A DNA stretch of 40,353 bases from an uncultured Rhodospirillaceae bacterium. Its GTDB lineage: Bacteria; Pseudomonadota; Alphaproteobacteria; UBA7887. Within the stretch, counting starts at the first letter, position 1, and every line of letters starts with the position of its first letter. The notes below the pieces were generated by a model. The model searched no databases and had not been told where the DNA came from. It saw only the letters and a program-made list of their open reading frames with translations. Location: NCBI GenBank assembly GCA_913045505.1, contig CAJWQN010000002.1, positions 1 to 40,353 of the forward strand, in the 5' to 3' direction. Of this stretch, positions 9,648-37,796 are shown piece by piece. A program made the translations under genes and the position numbers.

Positions 9648-9669
9648 CGTTCTCGGGGCGTGAGGGGCA

Positions 9670-11454: not shown

Positions 11455-12171
11455 ATGACCATGACCGAGACCATTCCCGTCTACGTGGGCTGGGATCCGC
11501 GTCAAGACATCGCCTATCAGGTTTGCCGCCACTCGTTGCTGGCCCGCGCTTCCTGGCCGGTCACGGTGAGCCCCCTGACCCAGGACCATCTGCGCGCGAC
11601 CGGATTTTACTGGCGCGACGAGGATCCGCTGGCCTCGACCGCGTTCACCTACACCCGGTTCCTGGTCCCGACCGTGGCCGGTTTCGAGGACTGGGCGCTG
11701 TTTTGCGACAGCGACTTTCTGTGGCTGGGCGACGTGGCCGAGCTATGGGCACTGCGCGACCCGCGCTACGCCGTGATGTGTGTCCAACACGATTATCGCC
11801 CACCCGAGACTCTCAAGATGGACGGCCGCCTCCAGACCCGTTATCCGCGCAAAAACTGGTCCAGCTTGATGCTCGTCAATTGTGGCCACCCCGCCAACGG
11901 ACCATTGACGGCGGTGATGGCGAACCGGGAAAGCGGCCGCTTCCTGCACCGTTTCAAATGGTTGGACGACAGCTTGATCGGCGCATTACCGGAGAAGTGG
12001 AACTGGCTCGAAGGGTGGTGCGCGAAGCCCCAGGTGGGAACTCCGCGGGCGATCCATTACACCCGCGGCGGCCCCTGGTTCGCGGACTGGCAAGACGTCG
12101 ATTACGCCGAAGACTGGTTCGACGAAGAGCGCCGGTACCGGGACACTCTGCCCGCCACTCACATCGCCTGA
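11455..12171 (+). CDS. GT-A fold DxD glycosyltransferase (GT8-like)
   Basis: ATG lies 1 nt after the flagellin-2 stop. Motifs: STAFTYTRFLVP, FCDSDFLWLGD (DxD), HYTRGGPWF. No terminator separates it from flagellin-2. The family assignment is from motif memory. Confidence 0.65.
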   Translation: MTMTETIPVYVGWDPRQDIAYQVCRHSLLARASWPVTVSPLTQDHLRATGFYWRDEDPLASTAFTYTRFLVPTVAGFEDWALFCDSDFLWLGDVAELWALRDPRYAVMCVQHDYRPPETLKMDGRLQTRYPRKNWSSLMLVNCGHPANGPLTAVMANRESGRFLHRFKWLDDSLIGALPEKWNWLEGWCAKPQVGTPRAIHYTRGGPWFADWQDVDYAEDWFDEERRYRDTLPATHIA

Positions 12172-13904
12172 GCGCCCAAACGGCCGGCCTCGATCGCGGG
12201 CGCCAAGGCGGCCCCGACCCGCGCCAGGACCCGATCCCAATCGCCGGCCTCGGTCTGGCGAAACAGGCGCATCCGCGGATACCAAAGACTGTCGTCCCGG
12301 TCCAATTGCCAGCGCCAATCGGGCACTTTCGGAATCAGGGTCCAGACCTCCTTGCCCAGCGCTCCGGCCAGATGAACCGCGGCGTTCGAGGTCGCGACCA
12401 CAATATCGAGGGCCGCGATCTGGGCGGCGAAACCGTCAAGATCCGCCATCTGATCGATCGCCGAATCGTGGTGAACACGGACCCCGTAACGGTGTTCCAC
12501 TGCCTCCAATTCCTCGGCGCAGTCGCCATATTGGAGATTGACGAACACCGCGTCCGCCTGCATCAGCACCGGATACCACTGGTTCAGCGACGATGACTTG
12601 GCGATGCTGAAGCGGATGTTGTCGACCGTGGCCACGCCCGATTTGCTGCGCCAAGCCACTCCGATTTTCGGTCCCCGACCAAGGGCATCATAACGGGCGC
12701 GAATGCGTGCGGCCTGCTCCGGGTCGGCGGTCAGATAGGCGCGCGGCGCGGCAAAGGATCGGGCCGAGCGGCGCAGCCAGCGGCACAGGCTGCCGGTCGC
12801 CGAGTGCCGGTCGATCATGGGCTCGAGCAGCCGCGAATCCGGGACCGCGGCACGGGCGACCACCTCCGCGTCGGGGAACGAGCGCGCGAACAGCGATGCC
12901 AGGCGCTCATCGCACTCGATCACGAGGCGCGCACCGGCGGCGATCACGTCGTCCAGAACCGAAGCGTACATCACTTCGTCCCCGATCCCCTGCTCGCCCC
13001 AGGCCAACAAAGTCGTTCCGGCCAGCGGCTCGCCCGTCCAGCGGGGATGGGAAAACGGCCTCGGCCAGGCATCCCTGGCCCGCCAGCGCCAGTCGTATTC
13101 GGCGAAGCCGTTCTCGAAATCGCCTCCCAGCAGCAGAGCCAGCCCGAGGTTCTTGTGCGCCTCGGCCAAGTCCGGCCGCAGGGCGATCGCCCGGCGGTGG
13201 CTTTCGATAGCCTCGTCCAGTTGGCCCAGATCCTTGAGTGCCACGCCCAAATTGTCGAACGCCTGGGCGAAATCCGGCCGGCGGGCGATCGCGCGCCGGT
13301 ATTCGACCACGGCCTCGTCCAGGCGGCCGACCGTGACCAGAATATTGCCCATATTGTTGCGGGCGTCGGCGTCGTCCGGATCGATGGCCAGGGCGGCGGC
13401 GTAGTGGCCGACCGCTTGGTCCAGGCGCCCGGTCGCCTTGAGCAGGACGCCCAGGTTGGAGTGGGCGCGCCCATGTTCGGGCGCGATCTCCAATGCGCGG
13501 CGAAACGCCGCCTCGGCTTCGTCCAAAATTCCTTCCGCCTCGAGTGCCAAGCCAAGATTGTTGTGGACGCCGGCCAGGTCCGCGTCCAGGCCCAAGGCGC
13601 GCCGGTATTGGCGGATCGCGTCCCCAAATCGGCCGCGTGCCCGGAACGTCTCGCCCATGGCATTGTGGTAGTCGGGCACCTTGGGATCGATGGCGATCGC
13701 CTCGCCGATCAGGACCGCGGCGCGGTCGGAGTCGCCCCGCTGTTGGGCGAGGACGCCCCGCAAATGAAGCGCATCGGCATTTTTCGGGTTGTCCTCGAGA
13801 ATCTCGCGGTACAAGCGCTCGGCCGTGTCGCCGTCGCCGGCACGATGGGCGCGCAAGGCCACGGCGAGGCGCGGGTCGGGTGCCGACACGTCGGGGCCGC
13901 TCAA
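12159..13904 (-). CDS. TPR-repeat + GT9 (heptosyltransferase)-like glycosyltransferase, paralog A
   Basis: N-terminal TPRs (AERLYREILEDNPKNADALHLRGVLAQQRGD...). The C-terminal domain carries the family motifs WGEQGIGDEVMYASVL, NLQYGDC, FAAQIAALDIVVATSNAAVHLAGALGKEVW, PDWRWQ, SLWYPRMRLFRQ. There is no in-frame ATG before the TPRs, so the start is taken as TTG 13904 overlapping the upstream stop (TTGA); GTG 13889 is the alternative. Its 3' end overlaps the convergent GT-A gene by 13 nt. Confidence 0.8.
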   Translation of the reverse strand: MSGPDVSAPDPRLAVALRAHRAGDGDTAERLYREILEDNPKNADALHLRGVLAQQRGDSDRAAVLIGEAIAIDPKVPDYHNAMGETFRARGRFGDAIRQYRRALGLDADLAGVHNNLGLALEAEGILDEAEAAFRRALEIAPEHGRAHSNLGVLLKATGRLDQAVGHYAAALAIDPDDADARNNMGNILVTVGRLDEAVVEYRRAIARRPDFAQAFDNLGVALKDLGQLDEAIESHRRAIALRPDLAEAHKNLGLALLLGGDFENGFAEYDWRWRARDAWPRPFSHPRWTGEPLAGTTLLAWGEQGIGDEVMYASVLDDVIAAGARLVIECDERLASLFARSFPDAEVVARAAVPDSRLLEPMIDRHSATGSLCRWLRRSARSFAAPRAYLTADPEQAARIRARYDALGRGPKIGVAWRSKSGVATVDNIRFSIAKSSSLNQWYPVLMQADAVFVNLQYGDCAEELEAVEHRYGVRVHHDSAIDQMADLDGFAAQIAALDIVVATSNAAVHLAGALGKEVWTLIPKVPDWRWQLDRDDSLWYPRMRLFRQTEAGDWDRVLARVGAALAPAIEAGRLGAQAM

Positions 13905-15715
13905 CCGGCGCCGACGCGGGCCGCGAGCTGGGTGCCCGCTCGCGCCATGACATCGTCCCAGTCGGCGGCGGTGGTTTGGCGCAGCAGGTCCATGTTCGGA
14001 TACCACAGGCTGTCGCCGCGGTCGCGCTGCCAGCGCCAATCGGGCACCTTGGCGAGCAGGGTCCAAACCTCCTGGCCAAGCGCGCCGGCCATATGGACTG
14101 TGGTGTTGGAGGTCGCGATGACTAGATCCAGGGCGGCGATCTGGGCGGCGAAGTCTTCCAGGCTCGCGATCTGGTCGATGGCGTCGTCATCGATGATGCG
14201 GACGCCGAACATTTGCTCGGCCTCGGCCAGATCAGCCGCGCAGTCACCGTACTGCAGATTGACGAACGTGGCGCCCGATTGGGTCAGGACCGGCGCCCAC
14301 TCGCCCAGGGACGACGACTTGGCGGCCTTGAACAAGACGTTTTCGATATTGGCGCGCCGAGGGGTGCTGCGCCACGCGATCCCGACCTTGACGCCGGGCG
14401 CTTGGCCGTCGTAGCGGGCGCGAACCTCCGCCACCCGCGCGGGATCGGCGGTCAGATAGGCTCGCGGCCCGGCGAACTGGGCCGGCTCGCGACGCAGCCA
14501 GCGACACAGGCCGCCGGCGGCGCATTGCAAATCGATGGTCGAATCCCGAAGACGCTCATCCGGCGGGTCGTCGCGGGTAATGAAGGTCGCGTTCGGGAAC
14601 GAGCGGGCGAACAGGGGTACCAGGCGCCCGTCGCATTCGACCACGACCCGACCGGCGGCGTCGATGACCTCGGGCAGGATCGACGCCAGCATGATCTCGT
14701 CGCCGACCCCTTGCTCGCCCCAGACCAGCAAGGTCTTGCCGGTGAGCGGCGCGCCGTCCCAGACCGGGATATCGAACGTCCGTTGCCAGGTATCCGGCTC
14801 GCGCCAACGCCATTCCCATTCGTCGAATCCGGCCGCGAACTCGCCGATCGAGAGCAAGGATACGCTGAGGTTCTTGTGCGCCTTCACATGGACCGGATCG
14901 GCGGCCACCGCGTGGCGATAAGATGCGATGGCCTGCTCGGCATCACCGCCATCGGCCAAATTGACGCCAAGATTGTAATGGGCGTCGGCGCAATTCGGCT
15001 GGGCGCGAATCGCCCGGCGATAATAAGCGGTCGACTCGGGCACCCGGCCGGTCTCCTTGAGCGCAGCGCCGACGTTGACCATCGCCTGGGCGTTGCCGGG
15101 CTCGATGTCGAGCGCCCGGCGATAATGCCAAAAGGCGTCGTCATGATGACCCTGCATCCACAAGGCGTTGCCCAGATTGCTGTGGGCGTCGGCGTATTTG
15201 GGCGCCACCGCCAGGGCCAAGCGGTAATGGGAGACGGCTTCGTCCAGCTTGCCCGCGCCTTTCAGCAGAATTCCCAGATTGTTGTGGCTCTTGGCATGAT
15301 CGGGCCGGCTGGTCAGCGCCCGGCGATAGTGGGTTTCCGCCTCGGCGATCTCTCCCGTGGCGGCCAAGGCCAGGCCCAGATTGTTGTGAGCGTCGGCGTG
15401 ATCGGGATCCAGATCGACCGCCCGGCGGCCATGGTTGATGGCATCGCCGAGCCCTCCTTGGGCGCGGTGCGCCTCGGCGATATTGCTGTGAAAATCCGCG
15501 ATCCGGTCGTTGATCCCGATCGCCCGGCCGATCAGGCGCACGGCCGTCGCGTGATCGCCGCCTTGATGGGCGGCGACTCCGCTCAAGTGCAGGGCGTCCG
15601 AATGATTCGGATCGTCGTCGAGAATTTCCCGGTACAGCCGTTCGGCTTCCCGAAGGTCGCCGGCCTGATGGCTGGCCAAGGCGGCCGAGAGCTTGGTTTC
15701 GGTGGTGGGCATCAT
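13901..15715 (-). CDS. TPR-repeat + GT9-like glycosyltransferase, paralog B
   Basis: ATG-ATG start at 15715. REAERLYREILDDDPNHSDALHLSGVAAHQGGD plus further TPRs, then WGEQGVGDEIMLASIL, NLQYGDC, IATSNTTVHMAGALGQEVW, PDWRWQ, SLWYPNM. Confidence 0.85.
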   Translation of the reverse strand: MMPTTETKLSAALASHQAGDLREAERLYREILDDDPNHSDALHLSGVAAHQGGDHATAVRLIGRAIGINDRIADFHSNIAEAHRAQGGLGDAINHGRRAVDLDPDHADAHNNLGLALAATGEIAEAETHYRRALTSRPDHAKSHNNLGILLKGAGKLDEAVSHYRLALAVAPKYADAHSNLGNALWMQGHHDDAFWHYRRALDIEPGNAQAMVNVGAALKETGRVPESTAYYRRAIRAQPNCADAHYNLGVNLADGGDAEQAIASYRHAVAADPVHVKAHKNLSVSLLSIGEFAAGFDEWEWRWREPDTWQRTFDIPVWDGAPLTGKTLLVWGEQGVGDEIMLASILPEVIDAAGRVVVECDGRLVPLFARSFPNATFITRDDPPDERLRDSTIDLQCAAGGLCRWLRREPAQFAGPRAYLTADPARVAEVRARYDGQAPGVKVGIAWRSTPRRANIENVLFKAAKSSSLGEWAPVLTQSGATFVNLQYGDCAADLAEAEQMFGVRIIDDDAIDQIASLEDFAAQIAALDLVIATSNTTVHMAGALGQEVWTLLAKVPDWRWQRDRGDSLWYPNMDLLRQTTAADWDDVMARAGTQLAARVGAG

Positions 15716-15775
15716 CCAGCCCCGTCTCGAACGGTCGTGGCCATTATGGACCCGGCGGTCAGCACCGCAAAGTCG

Positions 15776-17281
15776 TCATCCGCGATGGTCGGCCAGGGCC
15801 GCCGCGACCCGCGCCAGAAGCCCGGTCCAGTCGCCGGCATCGGCCTGGCGCATCAGGCGCGCGTTGGGATACCACAGGCTGCCCGTGGCCCCGCTCCGCC
15901 AACGCCAATCGGCAAGCTGGGGCAGAAGCACCCAGAGCGCGCCGCCCAGCGCGCCAGCCAGATGGGCGGTGGTGTTGGCGGTGGTGATCACCAGATCGAG
16001 CGCCGCGATCTGGGCCGCGAAATCATCGAGGCTGGTCATCTGATCGACCGCCGGATCGCGATGCACTCTGACGCCGAGCTGCTCCTCGATCGCGTCCAGA
16101 TCCGCGTCGCAGTCGCCATATTGGAGATTGACGAAGTGGATGCCGGCCTCGGTCAGGATCGGTGCCCAGGCATCGAGGCTGGAGGATTTGGCGGCACCAA
16201 AACGGCTGTCGCCGGCGGTGCTCCGCCATGAAATTCCGACCTTGAGGCCGCCGCCGAGACCGTCCAGAAAGCCACGGCACTCCTCGATTCGTGCCTCGTC
16301 GGCGCGGAGATAGCCGGGAATCGACGCAAAAGAATCGGAGTCCGGCCGCAGCCAACGGCCCAGGCCGCCGATCGGGCATTGAAAATCGATATCGGGTGCC
16401 ATCGTCAGGGGGGCCGGCGGGTCCTGCCTGGCGACGACCCGCACCCCCGGGAAGGACCGTTCAAACAGTGGCACCAGGCGCGGCGCGCATTCGATGATGC
16501 AGTGCTCCGCCGCCGCGGCGACTTCCCCAATCAGGGCGGCGAACATGATTTCCTCGCCGACCGCCTGCTCGCCCCAGACCAGAACCCGCCGCCCGGCCAG
16601 CGGCTCGCCCCGCCATTCGGGTTGGGGAAAGCCGCGCGCCGCGGTGGCCAATCCGGGTCTGCGGAATCGCCATTCGTATTCCGCCCAGCCGTCGGCGAAT
16701 TCACCGAGTCGGAGCAGCGTGATCGCCATATGGAAATGGGCCTCGGCATGGTCGGGACTGGCGTCCATGCAGCGCCGGTAGGCCGCGATCGCCGACACCG
16801 GATCGCCCCCGGCGTTCAACGCCCGGGCGAGGCGATAGAGGGTTTCGCCGTCGCCGGGGCGAAGCGCCAGGGCGTCCTGAAAGCACGCGACGGCATCCTC
16901 CGGGCGGCCCGATTCGGTCAAGGCCACGCCCAGATTGACATGGGCGTTGGCAAAGTCCCGGTTCAACGCCAGCGCGCGCCGGTAATGGTCGATCGCCTGC
17001 TCGGCGGCCCCCGTTTGCCAGAACAGGACGCCGAGATCGTGATGGACGGCGGCATTGTCGGCATCCAGGGCCAGTGACCGCTGGTAGCAGTCCATGGCGG
17101 CGGTGACCTCCCCTTGGCCTGCCAAGGCGATGCCCAGCAAATGATGCACATCGGCCCGATCGGGCGCCTTCGCCAACACCTCGCAATACGCCGCCACCGC
17201 CCGATCCAATTGGCCGCGCTTGTGATGGCGCAAGCCCAGCGCCAAGAGTCGGTCCCCGTCAGGCGTCGGCGCGGCACCCAT
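15776..17281 (-). CDS. TPR-repeat + GT9-like glycosyltransferase, paralog C
   Basis: ATG 17281 lies 3 nt after the upstream stop (TGA-GTG-ATG). There are about 6 TPRs, then WGEQAVGEEIMFAALI, NLQYGDC, ITTANTTAHLAGALGGALW, ADWRWR, SLWYPNARLMRQ. Confidence 0.85.
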   Translation of the reverse strand: MGAAPTPDGDRLLALGLRHHKRGQLDRAVAAYCEVLAKAPDRADVHHLLGIALAGQGEVTAAMDCYQRSLALDADNAAVHHDLGVLFWQTGAAEQAIDHYRRALALNRDFANAHVNLGVALTESGRPEDAVACFQDALALRPGDGETLYRLARALNAGGDPVSAIAAYRRCMDASPDHAEAHFHMAITLLRLGEFADGWAEYEWRFRRPGLATAARGFPQPEWRGEPLAGRRVLVWGEQAVGEEIMFAALIGEVAAAAEHCIIECAPRLVPLFERSFPGVRVVARQDPPAPLTMAPDIDFQCPIGGLGRWLRPDSDSFASIPGYLRADEARIEECRGFLDGLGGGLKVGISWRSTAGDSRFGAAKSSSLDAWAPILTEAGIHFVNLQYGDCDADLDAIEEQLGVRVHRDPAVDQMTSLDDFAAQIAALDLVITTANTTAHLAGALGGALWVLLPQLADWRWRSGATGSLWYPNARLMRQADAGDWTGLLARVAAALADHRG

Positions 17282-17284
17282 CAC

Positions 17285-19174
17285 TCAGCTCCGCGACGGG
17301 GCCACGAACCGGCCCAAGTCCTCGGCAACCCGCTTGAGCAGCCCGGCCCAGTCGCCCGGCCGGGACTGGCGCATCAGCCGCGCGTTCGGATACCACAGAC
17401 TGTCGGCGCGGCCCATCTGCCAACGCCAGTCCGGGACATAAGGCAGAAGGACCCAGACCGGGCGCCCGAGCGCGCCGGCGAGATGCGCGGTGGTGTTCGA
17501 GGTCGTGATGACCAGGTCCAGCCCCGCCAGTTGGGCGGCGAAATCGTCCAAGTTCAGGGCTTGATCGACCTTCGGGTCGCGATAGAGCGCAAACCCCAGA
17601 GCCTGCTCGGCCGCCGCGATTTCATCGGCGCAATCGCCGTGCTGCAGATTGGCGAAGGCGACCCCGGGCTGGCGCAGTACCTCGGCCCACGTCTCGAGGC
17701 TCGAGGTCTTGGACGCGCTGAACGGAGCGTTGGCACCGATGCTGCGCCAGGCGATGCCGACCTTGACCCCGTCCCGCCACCGATCCATCCGCTCTCGGCA
17801 GGCGGCGGCCCGTTCCGGATCGGCGGCCAAATAAGGCCGGGGGGGCGCGAAGGATTCCGAATCGCGCCGAAGCCAGCGGCACAAATCGCCGACGGCGCAG
17901 TGGAAGTCGATTTCGGGCGCGGCGGTTCGGGCGAGGGCCTCGATTCCGGGATGGGCGCGTTCTAGCAACGGCACCAGGCGCGGGTCGCATTGCACGAGGC
18001 AGCGCTCCGCCGCGCCGGCGACCTCCGGGATCAGGGACGCGAACATCACCTCTTCGCCAACGCCCTGCTCGCCCCAGATCAGGATCGTCCGGCCGGCCAA
18101 CGGCTCACCGCTCCAGGCCGGCGCCGGGAAATCTCGGGCCTGGTAGCGACCCTCTCCGGTGCGCCAACGCCAGGCGTAGCGGTCGAAGCCGTCGCCGAAG
18201 CGGCCGGCGAGGAGCATGAGCATGGCCAGGTTGAGCTGCAGGTCGGGCGAATCGGGTGCCAGGTCCGCCGCCACCTGGCCGCGCGTCAGGGCCTCGTCCA
18301 GGCGCCCCTGCTCGGCCAGGGCGATGGCCAGATTGCCGTGGGCGCGGGCGAGATCGGGCTTTAGCGTGATCGCCGATTTGAGGTGAGAGACGGCATCGTC
18401 GACGCGACCCAAATGGCGGGCCGCGGCACCGTAAGCATTGTGAGCCGGCGCCGATTTCGGGGCGAGTGTCATGGCCTGAACGGCATGTGCGGCGGCCTTT
18501 CGAAAACTCGCCACACGCACCAGCGCTTCCGACAAGTTCACATGGGCATCGACAAGATCCGGGTTGATGGCCAGGGCACGGCGGAACGCCGGGACCGCGT
18601 TACCGAGTTCGCCTTTCATGACCAGCGCCGCGCCCAGATTGTTGTGGGCTTCGGCATAGTCCTCGACCGCCGCCAGCGCCTGGCGGTAGTGATCGATCGC
18701 GGCATCGACGTCGCCCCGGGCGGCGAGCACGGCGCCCAGATTGTTGTGAGCCTCGGCGAAATCTGGCCGTGCCGCGACCGCGCGCCGGTAATGGTCGATC
18801 GCCGCATCCGCACGGTTCTGTCCGGCCAACAGAACGCCGTAATTGTTGTGGCTTTCGCCATGATCGGGCGCCAATTCGAGCGCCCGAAGGTAATGGGTTT
18901 CCGCCGCATCGGCGCGCCCGATCGCGGCCAGGGCGACCGCCAGGCGATTGTGGTAATCGGGTACCGCGTCGTCGGCGTCCAGCGCCCGCGACAGATAGGC
19001 GACCGCCTCCCCCGGTCGGCCCCGCTGAAGCAGAACCACGCCCTGGAGATGGGCGGCCTGGGCATTGTTCGGCTCTTGAGCCAGTACCTCGCCGTAGAAA
19101 CGCTCGGCCTCGTCCAGTTCGCCGCGCTGGTGGCAGCGCAGGCCCAATTCGATCTTGAGTTGCGCCGCTCTCAA
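17285..19174 (-). CDS. TPR-repeat + GT9-like glycosyltransferase, paralog D
   Basis: No in-frame ATG precedes the TPR head (LKIELGLRCHQRGELDEAERFY). The start is taken as TTG 19174, overlapping the stop of paralog E (TTGA) and preceded by GGAGAA. C-terminal motifs: WGEQGVGEEVMFASLI, NLQHGDC, ITTSNTTAHLAGALGRPVW, PDWRWQ. Confidence 0.8.
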   Translation of the reverse strand: MRAAQLKIELGLRCHQRGELDEAERFYGEVLAQEPNNAQAAHLQGVVLLQRGRPGEAVAYLSRALDADDAVPDYHNRLAVALAAIGRADAAETHYLRALELAPDHGESHNNYGVLLAGQNRADAAIDHYRRAVAARPDFAEAHNNLGAVLAARGDVDAAIDHYRQALAAVEDYAEAHNNLGAALVMKGELGNAVPAFRRALAINPDLVDAHVNLSEALVRVASFRKAAAHAVQAMTLAPKSAPAHNAYGAAARHLGRVDDAVSHLKSAITLKPDLARAHGNLAIALAEQGRLDEALTRGQVAADLAPDSPDLQLNLAMLMLLAGRFGDGFDRYAWRWRTGEGRYQARDFPAPAWSGEPLAGRTILIWGEQGVGEEVMFASLIPEVAGAAERCLVQCDPRLVPLLERAHPGIEALARTAAPEIDFHCAVGDLCRWLRRDSESFAPPRPYLAADPERAAACRERMDRWRDGVKVGIAWRSIGANAPFSASKTSSLETWAEVLRQPGVAFANLQHGDCADEIAAAEQALGFALYRDPKVDQALNLDDFAAQLAGLDLVITTSNTTAHLAGALGRPVWVLLPYVPDWRWQMGRADSLWYPNARLMRQSRPGDWAGLLKRVAEDLGRFVAPSRS

Positions 19175-23084: not shown

Positions 23085-23117
23085 CGCGGTCGCTCGTGGC
23101 CTAGGGGGCCGTGGCGG

Positions 23118-23774
23118 CTAGCCCGCGATCACCTCCGTGTTCGCCTGAGCGGTGCCGTCGGTGCCGATGACGTTGGACTCCACCATGAAGATATACCGGA
23201 TCGAGGCATGGTCGCGGGCGATGTCCTGGATCAACGTGCTCCACCATGGTTTCGGTTGGATCGTGCAATGGGCGTTCTCGCCATTGGGCAGATGCTTGCG
23301 CGCCGGATAGCTGGCGATGTTGCCGAACACGAAAATTCGAGCATAGCCGAAAATTTCGTCCAGGATCCACGGCAGGTCCTCCTCCGGGCAATGTTCCAGC
23401 ACATCGATGCTGATCACCGCGTCGTAGCGGTCTTCGGGCAAGGTGCTGAACGGCTCGTAGCCGGGATCGTAACAGGTGATCGAGTCGACCCCCCAATAGG
23501 CGGCCAAATCCGCGAATTGAGTCCCATCGGGGTCGGTGATCGGGAATGTGTATTGGAGTCCCTTGCCGGCGCCGTAGTCGAGCACCGTCAGGGGGTGAAA
23601 ATTATCCATAACCTTTTTGATCAGGACCGCCTGCCGGGTCAGGCTCTGACCGGGAAAGGTCTGATCGGGCGCCAGCCCCAGGGCGCGTTCGCCGTTGACA
23701 TGCATGTCCTTGTAAAGGGCCAGCAGCTCGACATAGCGCGGGCTGGGTTCGGTGCGGCTATACTGCTTGTCCAT
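23118..23774 (-). CDS. Class I SAM-dependent methyltransferase (type 1)
   Basis: The 218-aa product has motif I VLDYGAGKG and the post-motif block DAVISIDVLEHCPEEDL. It is the first gene of the minus-strand operon, 33 nt upstream of paralog F. Confidence 0.7.
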   Translation of the reverse strand: MDKQYSRTEPSPRYVELLALYKDMHVNGERALGLAPDQTFPGQSLTRQAVLIKKVMDNFHPLTVLDYGAGKGLQYTFPITDPDGTQFADLAAYWGVDSITCYDPGYEPFSTLPEDRYDAVISIDVLEHCPEEDLPWILDEIFGYARIFVFGNIASYPARKHLPNGENAHCTIQPKPWWSTLIQDIARDHASIRYIFMVESNVIGTDGTAQANTEVIAG

Positions 23775-23896
23775 CGCTTGTGAACCCTCGTTTCGATCGC
23801 GGCGCCGAAGTGCGATATCACACTAGTCCCACGACCCTTAAGATAGTCTTTACCAGCGCCGGCGCAAAACGGTGGCTGATTCTCGGGTCGCGGTGA

Positions 23897-26236: not shown

Positions 26237-26272
26237 GGAATCATTTAGGGTTTCGATGGCAATCTTGCGGGC

Positions 26273-26881
26273 ATGCGGATGACCGAACCGGAGCGCGCCC
26301 AGCGGATGGTGGCGCTGACGCAAGCGCTGAACGCGGACGCGCCGGCGCCCCGGCGCTTGCATCTGGGCTGCGGCACGCGCCATATTCCCGGATTCTTTCA
26401 CATCGATCTGGTCCCTCATTCCCATGTCGACTGGCTGGGCTCGGTCGAGCGTCTTGACCCGATTGCCGACGACAGCGTCGATCTCATCTACGCCAGCCAC
26501 GTGCTCGAGCATTTCGGCCGCTACCAGGTGTTCGACGTGGTCAGCGAATGGTACCGTGTTCTCAGGCCCGGCGGCGTGCTCCGGGTCGCGGTGCCCGATT
26601 TCGAGGCGGCCGCGGGTTTTTATCTGGCCGACGGCGATATTCGTCATGTCCTGGGGCTGATCATGGGTGGCCAAACAGCCCCTCACGACTATCACTACGC
26701 GATTTTCGACGAGACCAATTTGGGTGAGCTGCTGGCCGATGTCGGCTTCGAGAGGATTCGGCGTTACGATTGGCGCCAAACCGAACATGCCTGGCTCGAC
26801 GATTTCAGCCAGGCCTATCTGCCCCATATGGACAAGGACAACGGCACCCTGGTCAGCCTCAACGTCGAAGCGGTGAAATGA
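26273..26881 (+). CDS. Small SAM-dependent methyltransferase (type 2, paralog 1)
   Basis: The 202-aa product has LHLGCG (motif I) and SVDLIYASHVLEHFGRYQVFDVVSEWYRVLRPGGVLRVAVPD (Methyltransf_11-like). It is about two-thirds identical to the gene at 31144..31740. Confidence 0.75.
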   Translation: MRMTEPERAQRMVALTQALNADAPAPRRLHLGCGTRHIPGFFHIDLVPHSHVDWLGSVERLDPIADDSVDLIYASHVLEHFGRYQVFDVVSEWYRVLRPGGVLRVAVPDFEAAAGFYLADGDIRHVLGLIMGGQTAPHDYHYAIFDETNLGELLADVGFERIRRYDWRQTEHAWLDDFSQAYLPHMDKDNGTLVSLNVEAVK

Positions 26882-26906
26882 CCGGCGGGCGGCAAGGAGC
26901 CTGAGA

Positions 26907-29216
26907 GTGGTCGGAGCCGCGCCGCGGCTGGCCGAGGCCATCGCCCATCACCGGGCCGGTCGCGCGGCCGAGGCCGATCGATTGTATCGGGACGTGCTCG
27001 CCGCCGAGCCCGAGCAGGTCGATGCCCTCAACCTGCTCGGCGTGCTCGCCCATCAGCGTGGCGATCACGCCGGCGCGGCGGCGTTGATCGAGCGGGCGAT
27101 CGAGCTCCGCCCCGGGGTCGCCGATTTTCACAACAATCTGGGCGAAGCGCTGCGCGGCCTGGGCCGGATCGACGATGCCGCTCGCCAGTACCGCCGGGCG
27201 CTGGACTGTGATCCCGACCATGCCCACGCCCATGGCAATTTGGGCCTGATCGCGCTCGAGCAGAATCGTCACGAGGAGGCTACGGCCGCCCTCGCGCGGG
27301 CGGTGGCGCTCAAGCCGGACTCGGCGCCGTTTCAAATCAATCTGGGCCGGGCGCTGGCCAAGACCGGGCGCATCGATGACGCACTGGCCAGCTTTTCGAA
27401 GGCCGATGCCCCCTATTGGACCGCCCTGACCCTGCATCGCCAGGGCATGCTCGACGGCGCGATCGATCATTACCGCATCGCGCTCGACCGCGATCCGGAC
27501 CGCGCCGAGGCACGGTCCAATCTGGCGGCGGCCCTGGTCGAGAGGGGCGAGCCCGAGGCGGCGCTGCCCCTGTATCAGGCGGCGTTGGCCCAAGGTGAGG
27601 GCACGGCGGCGATTTACAACAATCTCGCCTTGGCCCTTCACAGACTCGGCCGTCTCGGCGATGCCGACGATCATTACCAGGCCGCCCTGGCGCGCGCGCC
27701 CTCACATCCGGACACCCTCAACAATCTGGGTGATCTTCGGGTCGAACAGGGCCGCGTGACCGAGGCCTTGGCGCTTTACGAGCGCGCGCTCGCGATCGAC
27801 CCCGATCACGACCACGCTTATGTCAATCTGGTCGCGCGCGCCAACTTGATTTGCGATTGGACGCGGCTGGCGAAGTACTTGCCCGGACTGGCCGCCCGAC
27901 TGGAACGAATCGCCGCCACCGGCGCCAATGCCGACAGCCTGATCCCGCTCACCTTCACCTTGCCGTACGTCTCCAGCGAGAACACGCACATCCGCGCGGT
28001 CGCGACCTTGGTCGGCGAGAGCTTGGCGCGAAGCGTGCCGCGACTGGCGGCGCGGGGCGCCATCGGCCGGACCCGCCGGCTCAAGATCGGCTACCTGTCG
28101 CCTGATTTCGGCGACCATCCGATCAGCCATGTCACCCGACCAATTTACGGGCTCCACGATCGGGACCGGTTCGAGGTGCTGTGTTATTCGCTGCTCGATC
28201 GGGCCGGCGCGGGCGGGCCGCATCTCGACTCCATTCGCTCCGATTGCGACCGGTTCGTCGACCTCGCCAAGTTGTCCGACCGTGACGCGGCCGAGCGCAT
28301 AGCCGCCGACCGGATCGATATCCTGATCGACCTGTCCGGATACATGCGCCACAACCGGGCCCGCATCCTGGCCATGAAGCCGGCGCCGCTCCAGGCCTAT
28401 TGGCAGGGCCACACCGGCACTCTGGGCGCCCCCTACATCGACTATGTGATCGGCGACGAGATCATGATGCCGCCCGAGGACGCTGAGTTCTTTACCGAAA
28501 AAGTGGTTCGCCTGCCGGATACCTTCTCCAGCGCCGACCGGCCGCCGATCGCGGAGGTCACGCAACGACGCTTGGATTTCGGCCTGCCCGAAACCGGCAT
28601 CGTCCTCTGCGCGTTCAACAATCCGCTCAAGATCGAGCCCGAAACCTTCGACGCCTGGATGCGGATTCTCGCCGCCGCTCCGCAAGCGGTCTTGTGGCTC
28701 AGCGAATCCAAGGATCCGGCGGTCCGGGACAATCTGGGCGCGGCGGCACGGGCCCGCGGCATCGACCCGGCGCGATTGGTGTTCGCATCGCGGATCCCAG
28801 ACAAGGCGGAGCACCTTGCCCGCCATCGCCTCGCCGACCTGTTTCTGGATACATTCAAGTTCAACGCCTCGACCACGGCGCTGGATGCGTTATGGACCGG
28901 GCTGCCGATCGTCGCCCGGCGTGGCAACAACGCCTATTCCCGGATCACCGCCTCCTATCTGAGCGCCGTTGGCATGGCCGAACTGGTGTGCCCGACCACC
29001 GACGCCTATGAGCGACTGGCTCTGGATTTGATTGCCGACTCGGGTGCGCGCGCCGCGGTCAAGGCCAAGCTACAGGCAAATCTGCCGACCAAGCCGTTGT
29101 TCGATTCAGAACGATTCGTTCGACATCTGGAAGCGGCCTATCAGATGATGTGGGACCGTCATGCAACCGGCGCGCGACCCGGCGCGATCGACGTCACCCC
29201 TTTGGATGCCGGGTGA
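26907..29216 (+). CDS. TPR-repeat + GT41 (OGT/SPINDLY-type) glycosyltransferase, paralog J
   Basis: GTG 26907 lies 7 nt after AAGGAG. TPRs are followed by IGYLSPDFGDHPISHV, ILIDLSGYM, QAYWQGHTGTLGAPYIDYVIGD, RLADLFLDTFKFNASTTALDALWTGLPIV and PLFDSERFVRHLEAAYQMMW. Confidence 0.85.
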   Translation: MVGAAPRLAEAIAHHRAGRAAEADRLYRDVLAAEPEQVDALNLLGVLAHQRGDHAGAAALIERAIELRPGVADFHNNLGEALRGLGRIDDAARQYRRALDCDPDHAHAHGNLGLIALEQNRHEEATAALARAVALKPDSAPFQINLGRALAKTGRIDDALASFSKADAPYWTALTLHRQGMLDGAIDHYRIALDRDPDRAEARSNLAAALVERGEPEAALPLYQAALAQGEGTAAIYNNLALALHRLGRLGDADDHYQAALARAPSHPDTLNNLGDLRVEQGRVTEALALYERALAIDPDHDHAYVNLVARANLICDWTRLAKYLPGLAARLERIAATGANADSLIPLTFTLPYVSSENTHIRAVATLVGESLARSVPRLAARGAIGRTRRLKIGYLSPDFGDHPISHVTRPIYGLHDRDRFEVLCYSLLDRAGAGGPHLDSIRSDCDRFVDLAKLSDRDAAERIAADRIDILIDLSGYMRHNRARILAMKPAPLQAYWQGHTGTLGAPYIDYVIGDEIMMPPEDAEFFTEKVVRLPDTFSSADRPPIAEVTQRRLDFGLPETGIVLCAFNNPLKIEPETFDAWMRILAAAPQAVLWLSESKDPAVRDNLGAAARARGIDPARLVFASRIPDKAEHLARHRLADLFLDTFKFNASTTALDALWTGLPIVARRGNNAYSRITASYLSAVGMAELVCPTTDAYERLALDLIADSGARAAVKAKLQANLPTKPLFDSERFVRHLEAAYQMMWDRHATGARPGAIDVTPLDAG

Positions 29217-29228
29217 GGAGCCGGCGCC

Positions 29229-31163
29229 ATGTCCTCCGATCCACGACTCGCCGCCGGACTGAAGGCCCACAAGGCCGGCCGTTTCGGAGAAGCCCAAGGT
29301 CACTATCAGGCGCTGCTCGATGAACGCCCCGACCATGCCGATGCCCTGCACCTGCTCGGGCTGACCTGCCACCAGAGCGGCGATCGGGCTCGGGCCGTCG
29401 AGCTGATTTCACGCGCCATCGTGATCAACGACGGGGCGGCCGATTACCACAACAGCCTCGGCGCGGTGCATGAGGCCCTGGGCTCGCTGGCGGACGCGGC
29501 CGAATGCTATCGGCGGGCGATCGTCCGCGATGCCGGATTCGCCAAGGCCCATCACAACCTGGGGGCCGTGTTGCAGAAGTCCGGCGATGCCGAGGCCGCC
29601 ATGTCCTGTTTTCAAACCGCCCTCTCGCTGCGGCCCGATATGGCCGGATCGATGGATGCCCTGGGCACCACACTTCTGGTGCTCGGCCGGCTCGAGGAAG
29701 CGGTGGCTTGTTTCCGTTCGGCGCTGGACATGCAGCCCGACTGTCACCGGGCCTATTTCAACCTTCTGGCACGGGCAAGCCAGCTTTGCGATTGGTCGAC
29801 CCAGGCCGCGCTGTTGCCGGAGTTCGAACGCCGTCTGAGCAGCTATTTGCGGGCCGGCGACGACCCCCGGCAATTGATGCCGCTGGCCTTCGCGCTGCCC
29901 TATTTCCGCGACGACGCGGTGCTGCACAAGACCTTGCTGGCCGGTCTCGGCAGCCATTTCGAGGCCGAGGCGGCGGGCCGGGCCCATGGTCATCCGCCCG
30001 CGCCGCATTCGGGGCGGATTCGCCTGGGCTATGTCTCGGCCAATTTCGGCGATCACCCGATTGCCCAGGTCACCCGGCCGGTGCTGGCGCTTCACGACCG
30101 CTCGGAATTCGAGGTCGCCGCCTACGCTCTGGCCGCCACCGATGCCCGGTCACCGATCCGCCGGGCCGTCGATCGCTTCGTCGATCTGTCGGCGGCTTCG
30201 ACCGAGGACGCGGCCCGCCAAATCCGCGCCGATGGCATCGAGATTCTGGTCGATCTCGGCGGTTACATGCGCCATGCCCGTCCGGCGCTGTTCGCCTTGC
30301 GCCCGGCCCCGGTGCAGGTCTACTGGCTCGGCCACGGCGGCGGGCTCGGCGCGCCCTATATCGACTACGTGATCGGCGATCCGATCCTGACCCCGCCCTC
30401 GGAGGATGATCGTTTCGTCGAATGCATCGCCCGTCTCCCCGACAGCTTCTCGACCGCCGAACGCGCCCTGATCGCCGAGGAGTCGCCGAGCCGGGCCGAT
30501 CAGGCCCTGCCCGAGGCCGCGATCGTGTTCGCGGCGTTCAACAATCCGCTCAAGATCGAGCCAGCGGTCTTCGACGCCTGGATGCGCATCCTGGATTCGG
30601 TGCCCGACAGCGTGCTGTGGCTGAGCGAACCCAAATTCCCCCCGGTCTGGACAAAACTTCGGGCCGCCGCCGCCGCCCGGGGCATCGATCCCGACCGCCT
30701 GATCGGCGCCAAACGAGTCCCCGACAAAGCCGTCCATCTGGCGCGCCATCGCCTGGCCGACCTGTTTCTGGATACGTTCAAGTTCAACGCCTCGACCACC
30801 GCGCTCGATTCGCTGTGGGCGGGGCTGCCGGTGGTGACCTGCCGGGGCCGGGGATTCACCGGGCGGATCGGTGCCAGCTATCTGCGCGCATTGGGCATGG
30901 CAGATCTGATCGCCGAGAGCGAGGACGCCTATGTGCGGCTGGCGATCGACCTCGCCGGCCGGCCCGCCGCCCGGGCGGCGCTCCGCGCCCGCCTTGCCGT
31001 CGCCCGCGACACCGCGCCGTTGTTCGATACCACGCGATTCACCCGGCATCTGGAATGGGCCTATCGGCACATGGTGGAATGTTGGGGGGCGGGGGCGCGG
31101 CATGCCTCGTTCGACGTTCCCGCGGCCTTCGAGGAGGAATCCCATGCTATTGTCGGCTCATGA
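29229..31163 (+). CDS. TPR-repeat + GT41 (OGT/SPINDLY-type) glycosyltransferase, paralog K
   Basis: ATG 29229 lies 8 nt after GAGGAG. It has fewer TPRs (644 aa). LGYVSANFGDHPIAQV, ILVDLGGYM, QVYWLGHGGGLGAPYIDYVIGD, RLADLFLDTFKFNASTTALDSLWAGLPVVT, PLFDTTRFTRHLEWAYRHM. Confidence 0.85.
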   Translation: MSSDPRLAAGLKAHKAGRFGEAQGHYQALLDERPDHADALHLLGLTCHQSGDRARAVELISRAIVINDGAADYHNSLGAVHEALGSLADAAECYRRAIVRDAGFAKAHHNLGAVLQKSGDAEAAMSCFQTALSLRPDMAGSMDALGTTLLVLGRLEEAVACFRSALDMQPDCHRAYFNLLARASQLCDWSTQAALLPEFERRLSSYLRAGDDPRQLMPLAFALPYFRDDAVLHKTLLAGLGSHFEAEAAGRAHGHPPAPHSGRIRLGYVSANFGDHPIAQVTRPVLALHDRSEFEVAAYALAATDARSPIRRAVDRFVDLSAASTEDAARQIRADGIEILVDLGGYMRHARPALFALRPAPVQVYWLGHGGGLGAPYIDYVIGDPILTPPSEDDRFVECIARLPDSFSTAERALIAEESPSRADQALPEAAIVFAAFNNPLKIEPAVFDAWMRILDSVPDSVLWLSEPKFPPVWTKLRAAAAARGIDPDRLIGAKRVPDKAVHLARHRLADLFLDTFKFNASTTALDSLWAGLPVVTCRGRGFTGRIGASYLRALGMADLIAESEDAYVRLAIDLAGRPAARAALRARLAVARDTAPLFDTTRFTRHLEWAYRHMVECWGAGARHASFDVPAAFEEESHAIVGS

Positions 31164-31740
31164 TACCCACTGGATGGGAAAGGCCTTGCACGTGGCGACC
31201 GCGGCGCCGGTGAAACTCTATCTCGGTTGTGGCCGGCGCCGGATTCCCGGATTCATCCATGTCGATCCGGACCCGCTGTCTCATGTCGAACATATCCAGC
31301 CGATCGATCGGCTGGATATGTTCGACGACGACAGCGTCGATCTGATCTATGCCAGCCATGTGCTCGAACAGTTCGGCCGCTACCGAATCTTCGACGTGGT
31401 CAGCGAGTGGTTCCGAGTGCTGCGCCCGGGTGGCGTGCTGCGCCTGGCCGGGCCGGACTTTTCCAAGGCAGCGCGCTACTACCTCGACCACGGCGACATT
31501 CGCGACGTGATGGGCCTGGTGGTCGGCGGCCAGAAATATCCGGGCGATCTGCACCTGGCCTTGTTCGACGAGACCAATCTCGGCGAGCTGCTGCTCGATG
31601 TCGGTTTCTGTTCGGTCGATCGCTATGACTGGCGACGGACCGAGCATGCCGAGATCGACGATCTGAGCCAGGCTTATTTGCCGCACATGGATAAGAAGCA
31701 CGGCACGCTGGTCAGCCTCAACGTCGAGGCGATCAAGTGA
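31144..31740 (+). CDS. Small SAM-dependent methyltransferase (type 2, paralog 2)
   Basis: ATG 31144 overlaps the end of paralog K by 20 nt; ATG 31174 is the alternative. LYLGCG, SVDLIYASHVLEQFGRYRIFDVVSEWFRVLRPGGVLRLAGPD and the C-terminus AYLPHMDKKHGTLVSLNVEAIK parallel the 26273 gene. Confidence 0.75.
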   Translation: MLLSAHDTHWMGKALHVATAAPVKLYLGCGRRRIPGFIHVDPDPLSHVEHIQPIDRLDMFDDDSVDLIYASHVLEQFGRYRIFDVVSEWFRVLRPGGVLRLAGPDFSKAARYYLDHGDIRDVMGLVVGGQKYPGDLHLALFDETNLGELLLDVGFCSVDRYDWRRTEHAEIDDLSQAYLPHMDKKHGTLVSLNVEAIK

Positions 31741-33440
31741 CCGAGGGCGCGCCCGATCCGCCCCCCGACCTCGAGCAGGCGCTCGAACATCACCGCGCCG
31801 GCCGCCTCGATGAGGCCGATGCGCTTTACCGCGCGTTCCGCGACATTCATCCCGATCATGCCGATGCGCTGCACCTTCATGGCCTGCTCGCTCACCAGCG
31901 CGGCGCGCATGATGAGGCGGCGGCCCGGATACGGCGCGCCATCGCCGGATGCCCGAACATCCCAATCTACCATGTCAGCCTCGGTGATGCCTGTCGCGCC
32001 GCGGGCGAAGTGGCGGCGGCGACCGACGCCTACGAGCGTGCGCTGGAATTGGCACCCGGCCTGGTCGAGGCGGTCAATGGCCTCGGTCTCATCGCGGTCG
32101 CCACCGGCGCGCTCGAGTCCGCCGCCGATCGGTTTCGCGAGGCCGCCAGGCTCGCGCCGGAGCGTGGCAAGCTTCATTTCAATCTCGCCAACGCCCTGCT
32201 TCATATCGGTGCCTATGAAGGCGCCGACGACGCTTTCGTCGCCGCTCTCGATCGGCAACCGGATGACGCCGACGCGCTGGCCGGGCGGGGCACGATCCGC
32301 CGTGATCTCGGCGACACGCCGGGCGCCATCTCTTTCTATCGACGCGCGCTCGACGCCCGGCCGGGAGATGGCCGTCTGCACAGCAATCTCGCGGTGGCGA
32401 TTCAGCAGACCGGCGACCTCGACGGCGCGCTCGAACATTTCGATACCGCCATCGCCTTGGCCCCCGATCTTGCCGAGGCGTACAAGAATCGGGCCATGCT
32501 GCTGTTGTTGCGGGGCGATTTCGAAGCCGGGTTCGATGGCTATGAGTGGCGCTGGCGCCACACCGACCCGATCAACACCAAGCGGCCGTTCCCGCAACCG
32601 GCCTGGGACGGCGGCCCGCTCGACGGCAAGACCCTGTTGGCCTGGGGCGAGCAGGGAATTGGCGACGAAATCATGTTTTCCTCCCTGGTGCCTGAGCTGG
32701 AGGCCGCCGCGGCAGGCTGCGTTCTGGAATGCGATCGGCGGCTCGAGCCCCTGTTCCGCCGCTCCTTTCCGCGCGTGACAGTGGTGGCGCGGTACGATCC
32801 CCCGAGCGCGGCAGCTCTGGCGTCCGACATCGACCTCCAATGCGCGACCGGCGACCTCTGCCGCTGGCGGCGCCGGCATCGCCGCGATTTCGCCTCCCCC
32901 GCCGCCTATCTGGTCGCCGACACCGAACGCGTCGCAGCCTTGCGCGCCCGTTACGATCGGCTCGGCGCCGGCCTCAAGGTGGGTATCGCGTGGCGCAGCA
33001 AGACCCCGGTCTGGGGCGCCATCAAGACCGCGAAGCTGGATCAGTGGGAGACGGTCCTGTCGCAGCCGGGGGCCGTGTTCGTCAATCTCCAGTACGGCGA
33101 CTGCGCGGCCGAACTGGCGCGCGCCGAGGCGTGCCATGGGGTCGTGGTACACCACGACGACACCGTCAACCAGATGGCCGATCTCGACGCCTTCGCGGCC
33201 CAGGTCGCGGCCATGGATCTGGTCGTGACCACGTCGAACACCACCGCCCATATGGCCGGTGCGTTGGGGGTGCCGTCACTGGTGTTGCTGGCCCATGTCC
33301 CGGATTGGCGCTGGCAGGCGACGGGCGATGCCGCGCTCTGGTATCCGCGTGTCCGCCTGATTCGTCAACCGCGTCCCGGATGCTGGGCGGAGGCCCTGGA
33401 GGTGGCCGGAGACGCCGTGGCGGCCCGGATCGCGGGATGA
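31737..33440 (+). CDS. TPR-repeat + GT9-like glycosyltransferase, paralog M (plus strand)
   Basis: GTG 31737 overlaps the methyltransferase stop (GTGA). LDEADALYRAFRDIHPDHADALHLHGLLAHQRG plus TPRs, then WGEQGIGDEIMFSSLV, NLQYGDC, VTTSNTTAHMAGALGVPSL, PDWRWQ, ALWYPRVRLIRQ. Confidence 0.85.
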   Translation: MTEGAPDPPPDLEQALEHHRAGRLDEADALYRAFRDIHPDHADALHLHGLLAHQRGAHDEAAARIRRAIAGCPNIPIYHVSLGDACRAAGEVAAATDAYERALELAPGLVEAVNGLGLIAVATGALESAADRFREAARLAPERGKLHFNLANALLHIGAYEGADDAFVAALDRQPDDADALAGRGTIRRDLGDTPGAISFYRRALDARPGDGRLHSNLAVAIQQTGDLDGALEHFDTAIALAPDLAEAYKNRAMLLLLRGDFEAGFDGYEWRWRHTDPINTKRPFPQPAWDGGPLDGKTLLAWGEQGIGDEIMFSSLVPELEAAAAGCVLECDRRLEPLFRRSFPRVTVVARYDPPSAAALASDIDLQCATGDLCRWRRRHRRDFASPAAYLVADTERVAALRARYDRLGAGLKVGIAWRSKTPVWGAIKTAKLDQWETVLSQPGAVFVNLQYGDCAAELARAEACHGVVVHHDDTVNQMADLDAFAAQVAAMDLVVTTSNTTAHMAGALGVPSLVLLAHVPDWRWQATGDAALWYPRVRLIRQPRPGCWAEALEVAGDAVAARIAG

Positions 33441-37671: not shown

Positions 37672-37796
37672 GCACTCCTCACTCGACCAATTTATTGCCT
37701 TACCGGCTTTCAAACAGTTTGCTCTATCCGATGCCAGATCCCTCTGTCCCGGCCAGCGAAATGCCGGTCGGGTGGGACGGCCAAGCGAGCAAGTCC

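Follow-up and report, generated by a model that had tools for sequence, protein, structure and literature searches.

Why should ten neighboring glycosyltransferase genes with two different kinds of catalytic domain all open with the same short stretch of protein? This question is raised by a 40,353-nucleotide piece of DNA (hereafter, the window; contig CAJWQN010000002.1 of assembly GCA_913045505.1, C2 in our numbering) from an uncultured Rhodospirillaceae bacterium, the genome of which is 86.6% complete and comprises 3.05 Mb on 378 contigs. Following the second of two flagellin genes, the window encodes ten large tetratricopeptide repeat (TPR) proteins with a C-terminal glycosyltransferase (GT) domain that we call g1 to g10. 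The initial annotation had noticed that all of them start with a closely similar TPR "head", no matter whether a GT9-like or a GT41 domain follows, and had read this as a sign of either domain shuffling or a shared docking function by which enzymes of different chemistry recognize the same partner or acceptor. This observation is real but overstated. We consider it probable that the region is a flagellin-modification island built on a logic like that of the glycosyltransferases FlmG and OGT, and that the head is a starter of TPR arrays that is found across a whole superfamily and has been inherited together with the TPR module.

Ten TPR-glycosyltransferase fusions of two catalytic classes

As annotated initially, the interval from 12159 to 33440 holds ten open reading frames (ORFs) for TPR fusion proteins, with g1–g6 on the minus strand (12159–23084) and g7–g10 on the plus strand (23897–33440). 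TPR repeats score above the Pfam cut-offs in each of the ten proteins (TPR_1, TPR_2, TPR_11, and others), and the five peptides that had been quoted are all found in the translations, so that paralogs F, E, M, J, and K correspond to g6, g5, g10, g8, and g9, respectively. The TPR arrays keep an exact 34-residue register from the head into the catalytic domain with the sole exception of g8, which has one indel.

Three of the proteins carry a GT41 domain, namely g7 (23897–26236, plus strand; head at 23912–24151 and 9 TPRs), g8 (26907–29216, plus strand; head at 26922–27161 and about 9 TPRs), and g9 (29229–31163, plus strand; head at 29241–29480 and 5 TPRs). They reach 314.4, 280.3, and 276.4 bits with Pfam PF13844 at a cut-off (gathering score) of 25 bits, and the other seven proteins have no GT41 match. 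The catalytic part of g7, which alone was compared, aligns with human OGT at E = 4.7e-80 and with its bacterial homolog from Xanthomonas, XcOGT, at E = 6e-70. The alignment with human OGT covers the stretches GYVS.DFG.HP.SH and LAD..LDT....N..TT.(L/M)D.LW.G.P and consists of two separate segments that skip around 100 OGT residues (394 to 496), while the alignment with XcOGT is one continuous stretch.

The other seven proteins share a different C-terminal domain of around 310 residues that is 54–60% identical to that of g2. On the minus strand, these are g1 (12159–13904; head at 13635–13874 and 8 TPRs; 514.6 bits with our catalytic-domain profile) as well as g2 (13901–15715; head at 15458–15697 and 8 TPRs), g3 (15776–17284; head at 17012–17251 and 5 TPRs), g4 (17285–19174; head at 18920–19159 and 9 TPRs), g5 (19171–20673; head at 20422–20661 and 5 TPRs), and g6 (20670–23084; head at 22812–23051 and 14 TPRs), and on the plus strand g10 (31737–33440; head at 31764–32003 and 7 TPRs), all seven of which were recognized by TPR and catalytic-domain profiles. 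The shortest paralogue, g3, is also the one with the most divergent head.

Calling this second domain GT9-like, as had been proposed, is borne out by its fold and not by family assignment, given that none of the seven proteins reaches the gathering score of Pfam GT9 (PF01075, 22 bits): g4, g6, and g10 score 15.1, 13.6, and 13.4 bits, respectively, and g1, g2, g3, and g5 have no match. NCBIfam returned only sub-threshold matches to heptosyltransferase I (12–14 bits), and a search of Protein Data Bank (PDB) sequences with the GT9-like profile gave no match at E <= 1. When modeled with AlphaFold, the g2 domain adopts a GT-B fold at a mean predicted local distance difference test score (pLDDT) of 95.1, and its best matches among solved structures in Foldseek are GT9 enzymes with E-values from 4.9e-9 to 7e-6 and template modeling (TM) scores of 0.48–0.59, including 3tov (E 4.9e-9), WaaF (1psw; TM 0.59), WaaC, and TibC (4rap), with 2h1h and 2gt1 also among the matched entries. 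Separately, we observed that a few ESM Atlas clusters structurally near the GT9-like domain are mostly labeled as Uroviricota, with labels derived from just 2–7 members of known phylum.

The full-length model of g3 (pLDDT 92.6; predicted TM score, pTM, of 0.87) consists of twelve TPR helices (residues 7–207) followed by the GT-B domain and, compared as a whole chain, is matched best by SPINDLY and OGT. The TPR part of the model lies on the TPR domain of OGT (1w3b) with a root-mean-square deviation of 2.2 over 199 columns at 29% identity, and because the TPRs of a GT9-like enzyme superpose on those of OGT in this way, both enzyme classes of the island appear to use an OGT-like array. The two catalytic families had been described as unrelated, which is true of their sequences (profile-profile comparison with hhalign gives a probability of 0.5%, i.e., no sequence relation), though both adopt GT-B folds.

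The six minus-strand genes from g6 to g1 are predicted to be translationally coupled. At the junction of g6 and g5 (20670–20673), the start codon of g5 (ATG at 20673) overlaps the stop codon of g6 in an ATGA motif, and the TTG start of g4 at 19174 overlaps the stop codon of g5 in a TTGA motif (19171–19174). Between g4 and g3 (17282–17287) the stop codon is immediately followed by GTG, and the junction of g2 and g1 (13901–13904) is possibly another TTGA, depending on whether g1 starts with TTG at 13904, which overlaps the g2 stop, or with GTG at 13889.

The shared head and its distribution

The head is the two-repeat start of the TPR array and begins 5–12 residues after the best start codon in all ten proteins. 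Its units 1 and 2 follow the consensus prLa.aLrhHqaGrldEAerlYRevLa..P.haD and ALHLlGv.ahQrGd.aeAvali.RAi..dp, which differ from the consensus of the internal repeats, AHnNLG.aL...G..deA.a.yrrAla..Pd. We found the ten heads to be clearly homologous but far from "near-identical", as they had been called: pairwise identity over the 47 columns quoted originally is 30–74%, and just 5 of these columns are invariant with 8 more conserved at 90% or above. Mean identity is 51.0% within the GT9-like class (21 pairs), 44.9% within the GT41 class (3 pairs), and 44.3% between them (21 pairs). A profile of all ten heads scores 67.6–79.6 bits on these same heads, values that are high by construction because this is its training set. 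Scores across classes are the fairer test, and these are 40.1–51.8 bits for the GT9-like profile on GT41 heads and 20.4–55.2 bits for the GT41 profile on GT9-like heads, compared to at most 30 bits for the best internal repeat with the head profiles.

In one respect the head is clearly different from the repeats that follow. Position 6 of the classical TPR, where asparagines form the so-called asparagine ladder, is never Asn in unit 1 or in unit 2 (0/10 each; always Leu in unit 2), is Asn in two of ten cases in unit 3, and is Asn in 37 of 44 cases in units 4–14 (the count for g8 stops after unit 4). The head is therefore devoid of the OGT-type asparagine ladder. A report on OGT (PMC11145291) describes that substrates are bound in the TPR lumen via this ladder and that the first five TPRs from the N-terminus show high conservation.

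We then compared the head with the background of TPR proteins in the same genome, where a profile of internal repeats detected 27 TPR ORFs. In fifteen of these the head reaches 30 bits or more, in one, C248, it is weak at 23.7 bits, and the other eleven lack it, so the head is not a generic TPR consensus. Yet it is common on other fusions, as six further ORFs outside the island carry it at 30 bits or more. Five of them are fusions to a sulfotransferase (C334; Sulfotransfer_3, 173 bits), a S-adenosylmethionine (SAM) methyltransferase (C259), a GT9-like domain that scores above the Pfam GT9 cut-off (C139; 27.2 bits), a GT41 domain (C124), and a polysaccharide pyruvyl transferase (C111; L006:272–2854) in which the head at residue 404 is followed by TPRs and a GT9 domain of 30.1 bits that is also above the cut-off. 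The other one, C306, is a sixteenth head and a head-only ORF (L087:290–550; 31 bits) that is separated by one in-frame stop from an ORF with TPRs and a radical-SAM/SPASM domain (554–1585), a split that could be due to a pseudogene, a sequencing error, or read-through.

The same picture emerged from public databases. A search with residues 1–90 of g2 found 55 other proteins of 38–62% identity, in 54 of which the start of the head lies no further in than residue 65. After re-scoring with our own catalytic-domain profile, these were assigned as 23 GT9-like proteins, 17 GT41 proteins, 11 methyltransferases, one sulfotransferase, one GT2_5 protein, and two proteins of none of these types. Searching 1.84 billion cluster representatives with the 47-column head profile returned 56,896 proteins at E <= 1e-3, of which 14,838 reached E <= 1e-10, numbers that overstate the count of true heads since the whole-protein scores add up internal repeats. 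We therefore re-scored the best 150 representatives domain by domain and found at least one GT9-like or GT41 module in 126, two to five modules in 88, and both GT9-like and GT41 modules in one and the same chain in six of them (P0197, P0212, P0260, P0309, P0310, and P0323). In this set, 192 of 278 catalytic modules have their own head of at least 30 bits, including 93 of the 152 modules that are not the first of their protein. Because such downstream modules have their own heads, what the head marks is where each TPR array begins and not where the protein begins.

Pfam searches with 15 proteins to which our two catalytic profiles had given no assignment, including 13 of the 24 unassigned members of the set of 150, revealed sulfotransferases, methyltransferases, and one 2-oxoglutarate/Fe(II) (2OG-Fe(II)) oxygenase. 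The head is thus joined to at least seven types of catalytic domain (GT9-like, GT41, GT2_5, sulfotransferase, SAM- and O-methyltransferase, and 2OG-Fe(II) oxygenase), while it is joined to a radical-SAM domain only across the in-frame stop of C306. As a separate observation, some proteins among P0176–P0325 are giant polyproteins of up to 3,798 amino acids with two to five repeated [head-TPR-catalytic] modules. A literature search of limited scope found no description of the head motif or of a flagellar island of TPR proteins with GT9-like domains.

Does the head nonetheless follow the catalytic domain that it is fused to? Across the heads of 226 modules, identity averages 0.350 within the GT9-like class, 0.363 within the GT41 class, and 0.353 between the two, and for 140 of these 226 heads the nearest one from another protein is of the same class, compared to 52% expected by chance. 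On a tree of 71 heads, the catalytic class needs 26 changes where the minimum would be 5 and shuffled labels need 33.2 on average (standard deviation 2.0), with one of 1,000 shuffles being as low. By these measures, the head appears to carry hardly any signal of catalytic class.

A comparison of separate phylogenies for head and catalytic domain included genes from three relatives of the same family with similar islands (G006, G010, and G004). The head trees are poorly resolved, with 42 of 68 inner branches open for the 71 heads and 12 of 22 open for a tree of 25 rows and 102 columns that includes these relatives, and their depth is beyond resolution because heads give only 80–102 columns. On the latter tree the GT41 heads form no clade (5 changes for 6 rows), though in an approximately unbiased (AU) test, a tree that unites the five flagellar GT41 heads in one clade was not rejected (p = 0.278). 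Where the head tree is resolved, it pairs g7 with G006e (support 97/92), g3 with G010b and G004b (99/97), and G010a with G004c, and the same groups are found in the catalytic-domain trees. In G006, the partner of the g8 catalytic domain is G006f, its second GT41 gene (99/97), and that of the g10 C-terminal domain is G006g, its plus-strand GT9-like gene (100/97). Head and catalytic domain hence share the same groups of orthologues as far as the trees are resolved, and at depth incongruence is neither shown nor excluded. A search for gene conversion found no stretch of at least 100 nt in which the DNA of two paralogues exceeds about 78% identity. Since the orthologue groups agree and the paralogues are this dissimilar at the DNA level, we conclude that the recombination of modules was in all probability ancient and has been followed by vertical inheritance, with no sign of recent exchange. 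Domain shuffling thus holds as an ancient and general process in which one module was combined with many catalytic domains, but not as something that has recently happened at this locus.

Flagellin as the likely acceptor

The left part of the window is a flagellar locus that encodes FlgH, FlgI, FlgK, and an FlgL-like protein followed by a flagellin, FlbT, FlaF, and a second flagellin. The two flagellins of 274 amino acids each (8783–9607 and 10629–11453, both on the plus strand; Pfam Flagellin_N and Flagellin_C) frame the flagellin regulator genes flbT (9664–10077, plus strand; Pfam FlbT E 7e-41) and flaF (10052–10393, plus strand; Pfam FlaF E 1.8e-29). Among 14 control genomes, FlaF was matched only in Caulobacter vibrioides. 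The first flagellin, which we presume to be an acceptor, is 68–80% identical to the flagellins of relatives that adjoin the same kind of island.

Syntenic islands of flagellin and TPR-glycosyltransferase genes are found in G006, G010, and G004, and the one in G006 comprises two flagellins followed by five GT9-like and two GT41 genes. In two genomes from two other alphaproteobacterial families, G028 (L088) and G022 (L090), one or two genes for TPR proteins with a GT9-like domain adjoin flagellins, flbT, and flaF. These proteins of 610–698 amino acids match what was published for FlmG in size and position, and two out of three (the G022 member and one of two in G028) have a weak head of 19–20 bits. 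The position directly after flagellin, flbT, flaF, and flagellin is conserved in at least three alphaproteobacterial families. The GT9-like domain is present in 13 of 31 near relatives, and among 64 loci of this family from named genomes, a flagellin is encoded no more than about 6 kb away in nine (five of these nine in Planctomycetaceae) and a GT41 gene is nearby in seven.

This gene context resembles that of FlmG, the flagellin O-glycosyltransferase of Caulobacter crescentus and Brevundimonas subvibrioides that, in its published description (PMC7591256), is cytoplasmic, combines an N-terminal TPR domain with a C-terminal GT-B domain of around 300 residues, and is encoded in an alphaproteobacterial flagellar locus with flagellin, flaF, and flbT-type genes. 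At 596 amino acids, it is also similar in size to g1–g6 and g10 with their about 500–800 amino acids. According to the same text, the TPR domain of FlmG (residues 1–313) binds flagellins, whereas its GT-B domain does not, and chimeras reportedly showed that the TPR part sets the acceptor and the GT-B part sets the donor, which changes upon exchange of the GT-B domain (bioRxiv 10.1101/2022.03.25.485807). Unlike the single FlmG, the island in the window has seven such paralogues plus three GT41 enzymes and three small methyltransferases, and the nearest named records of this organism are not Caulobacterales. The name FlmG does not appear on any of the 120 relatives listed for the C-terminal domain.

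With regard to the catalytic domains, the best structural matches of the GT9-like domain connect g1–g6 and g10 to the GT9 enzymes WaaC and WaaF and to the protein heptosyltransferase TibC, which illustrates that a GT9-like fold is capable of protein glycosylation. Unlike these enzymes, the GT9-like domain of the island is fused to TPRs, stays below the GT9 thresholds of Pfam and NCBIfam, and is without a sequence match in the PDB. The GT41 proteins g7–g9, in turn, combine a GT41 domain with N-terminal TPRs that have an 'AHNNLG' repeat of the asparagine-ladder type, just like OGT, XcOGT (2jlb/2vsn), and Arabidopsis SPINDLY (7y4i, 8dtf), but they are three paralogues inside a flagellar island. 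A further parallel is Maf-1 of Shewanella oneidensis, where a TPR domain is likewise joined to a glycosyltransferase domain in a flagellin setting and does the flagellin-binding job for a GT-A enzyme (bioRxiv 10.1101/2023.12.03.569772). In contrast to g1–g10, Maf-1 carries its TPR domain at the C-terminus and its catalytic domain has a GT-A fold (MAF_flag10), a domain that is absent from the Pfam matches of the ten proteins (for g6, among the best 25 of 27 families). With FlmG and Maf-1 both published, the literature already describes a flagellin-binding TPR domain joined to transferases of different folds.

Taken together, we propose that the island encodes ten modular soluble protein glycosyltransferases in which a two-repeat head and an OGT-like TPR array are followed by a GT-B catalytic domain, with seven GT9-like enzymes of FlmG-type architecture and three enzymes whose GT41/OGT domain appears to be canonical. 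If FlmG and OGT are taken as models, the TPR array would hold the acceptor protein and the catalytic domain would choose the donor sugar, and the common acceptor is most likely flagellin, i.e., the two adjacent flagellins. The head would be the conserved TPR1-2 that opens every array of a very large enzyme superfamily whatever catalytic domain follows, and it would most likely cap the superhelix at its N-terminus, or form the entrance to its lumen, without deciding which protein is bound. TPR modules of one kind would have been gained by both catalytic classes when domains recombined in the distant past, with head and catalytic domain being co-inherited ever since. The wider idea suggested initially, that enzymes of different chemistry share a single substrate (here, flagellin), is plausible because of the gene context, the polyproteins mixing GT9-like and GT41 modules, and the published work on FlmG, and not because of the head.

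Several findings weigh against this interpretation and need to be considered together with the alternatives that they favor. The likeness of the seven GT9-like enzymes to FlmG is drawn here from architecture and gene context. Furthermore, of 201 genomes from across the Alphaproteobacteria, 79 contain the GT9-like family, with as many as 12 matches in one genome, and no flagellin is encoded within about 6 kb at 55 of the 64 loci mentioned above. With a family that is so widespread and mostly without a nearby flagellin, many members must have other targets, and the enzymes of this island might similarly act on another protein or a glycan while their flagellar position is incidental. We regard this as improbable in view of the conserved position after flagellin, flbT, flaF, and flagellin, the recurrence of flagellin adjacency in Planctomycetaceae, and the precedent of FlmG (PMC7591256). 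Other observations would rather point to a more specific role of the head. Three polar residues outside the TPR consensus are conserved over the 226 heads (His9 in 86%, His36 in 83%, and Gln44 in 83%), which seems to exceed the need of a purely structural cap and hints at a function beyond capping. From general TPR geometry, we expect all three to face the lumen. The GT41-head profile gives 48.4–55.2 bits on five of the seven GT9-like heads of the island (34.2 bits for g4 and 20.4 bits for g3), compared to 36.3 bits or less on heads of the genome outside of it; across classes, the island heads thus appear somewhat closer to each other than to other heads in the genome. Finally, among the loci from named genomes, heads of at least 35 bits are found in 15 of 19 modules at flagellin-adjacent loci versus 53 of 109 elsewhere, a comparison that is biased since this window supplied the training set of the profile and its kin supplied three of the loci. 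All of this might be expected if the head were a true docking site for one common partner such as the conserved terminal helices of flagellin, an FlaF/FlbT-type factor, or a general chaperone, and OGT's conserved N-terminal TPRs reportedly mediate many protein-protein interactions (PMC11145291). We still consider it unlikely, because the head is also found on sulfotransferase, methyltransferase, oxygenase, and radical-SAM fusions, occurs in phyla and loci without a nearby flagellin, restarts the internal modules of polyproteins, is devoid of the asparagine ladder, and is weak in the flagellin-adjacent proteins of G022 and in one of the two in G028. The commonness of the head on other fusions of the genome and its presence in tens of thousands of public proteins largely amount to the first finding that, according to the initial annotation, would refute a shared docking function, even though the head is distinct from generic TPRs.

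A different role for the head could be self-association or association between paralogues, so that the ten enzymes would form an assembly line as the unfused counterpart of the polyproteins. The abundance of proteins with two to five modules (88 of 150 representatives, six of which mix GT9-like and GT41 modules) and the tight coupling of g6 to g1 by ATGA and TTGA overlaps would agree with this idea, but single-copy members of the family carry the head as well, and the dimer contact of OGT is located at TPR6-7 and not at the N-terminus (PMC11145291), so that we find it very unlikely. Even less can be said for recent domain swapping or gene conversion inside the island as the process that homogenized the heads of both classes. 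The heads of g1 and g2 (GT9-like) are near neighbors of those of g8 and g9 (GT41), and vice versa, on the poorly resolved trees and the GT41 heads were not recovered as a clade, just as such exchange would predict. Conversely, the paralogues lack any longer stretch of closely similar DNA, the AU test is compatible with one clade of GT41 heads, the pairs that heads form with relatives mirror those of the catalytic domains, and heads from unrelated organisms are equally similar (up to 62% identity to g2), which together make recent swapping extremely improbable. Overall, a flagellin-modification island with a superfamily-wide TPR starter is the interpretation that we favor.

Neighboring genes and broader implications

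Three small methyltransferase-like genes are interspersed with the large genes of the island. One is located directly upstream of g6 (23118–23774, minus strand; 25.8 bits with Pfam Methyltransf_23, short of its cut-off of 27), while the others encode small SAM methyltransferases directly upstream of g8 (26273–26881, plus strand; Pfam Methyltransf_11 at 41.2 bits) and of g10 (31147–31740, plus strand; Pfam Methyltransf_11 at 30.6 bits). The latter two are 66% identical, whereas the first one shares only 24% identity with both, and all three may act as methylators of sugars or of flagellin. At the edge of the island, a GT4/GT1-type glycosyltransferase gene (34045–35226, minus strand; 80.4 bits with Pfam Glycos_transf_1 and 73.2 bits with Glyco_transf_4) may by its position be another member. 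Elsewhere in the genome, two genes of the NeuB family of nonulosonic acid synthases (C339:71–787 and C28:14303–15022) would be compatible with two sialic acid-like donors. The remainder of the window contains a multi-haem cytochrome-like ORF (36733–37713) and three large minus-strand ORFs with coding-like GC content at third codon positions (GC3) and no match in Pfam or NCBIfam (35300–36376, 37797–39242, and 39232–40290).

Beyond this locus, one might speculate that the head and TPR array form a universal acceptor-handling cassette of a vast and essentially unstudied superfamily of cytoplasmic protein-modifying enzymes, including glycosyl-, sulfo-, and methyltransferases, oxygenases, and radical-SAM enzymes. 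The His-His-Gln set at the lumen entrance would then recognize a trait shared by unfolded secretion substrates, flagellin among them, and the ten tandem genes of the island as well as the polyproteins of other organisms would be assembly lines in which GT9-like and GT41 enzymes work in sequence to build a mixed modification on one protein. We view this broader scenario as doubtful.

TPR-guided protein glycosylation in the cytoplasm is known from few cases, namely OGT, FlmG, and Maf-1. Against this background, the locus described here is an unusually large set of such enzymes beside flagellins, with seven of FlmG architecture, three of OGT type, and three methyltransferase-like genes. Given that the head is spread across a superfamily and found on at least seven catalytic types, the head motif is no evidence for a shared target, and the acceptor specificity of these enzymes is better sought in the variable inner repeats. 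A preprint of 2023 described the distribution of FlmG as narrow and confined to Caulobacterales (bioRxiv 10.1101/2023.12.03.569772). If the homology of the GT9-like enzymes to FlmG is true, our results suggest that FlmG-like architecture is far more widespread than that.

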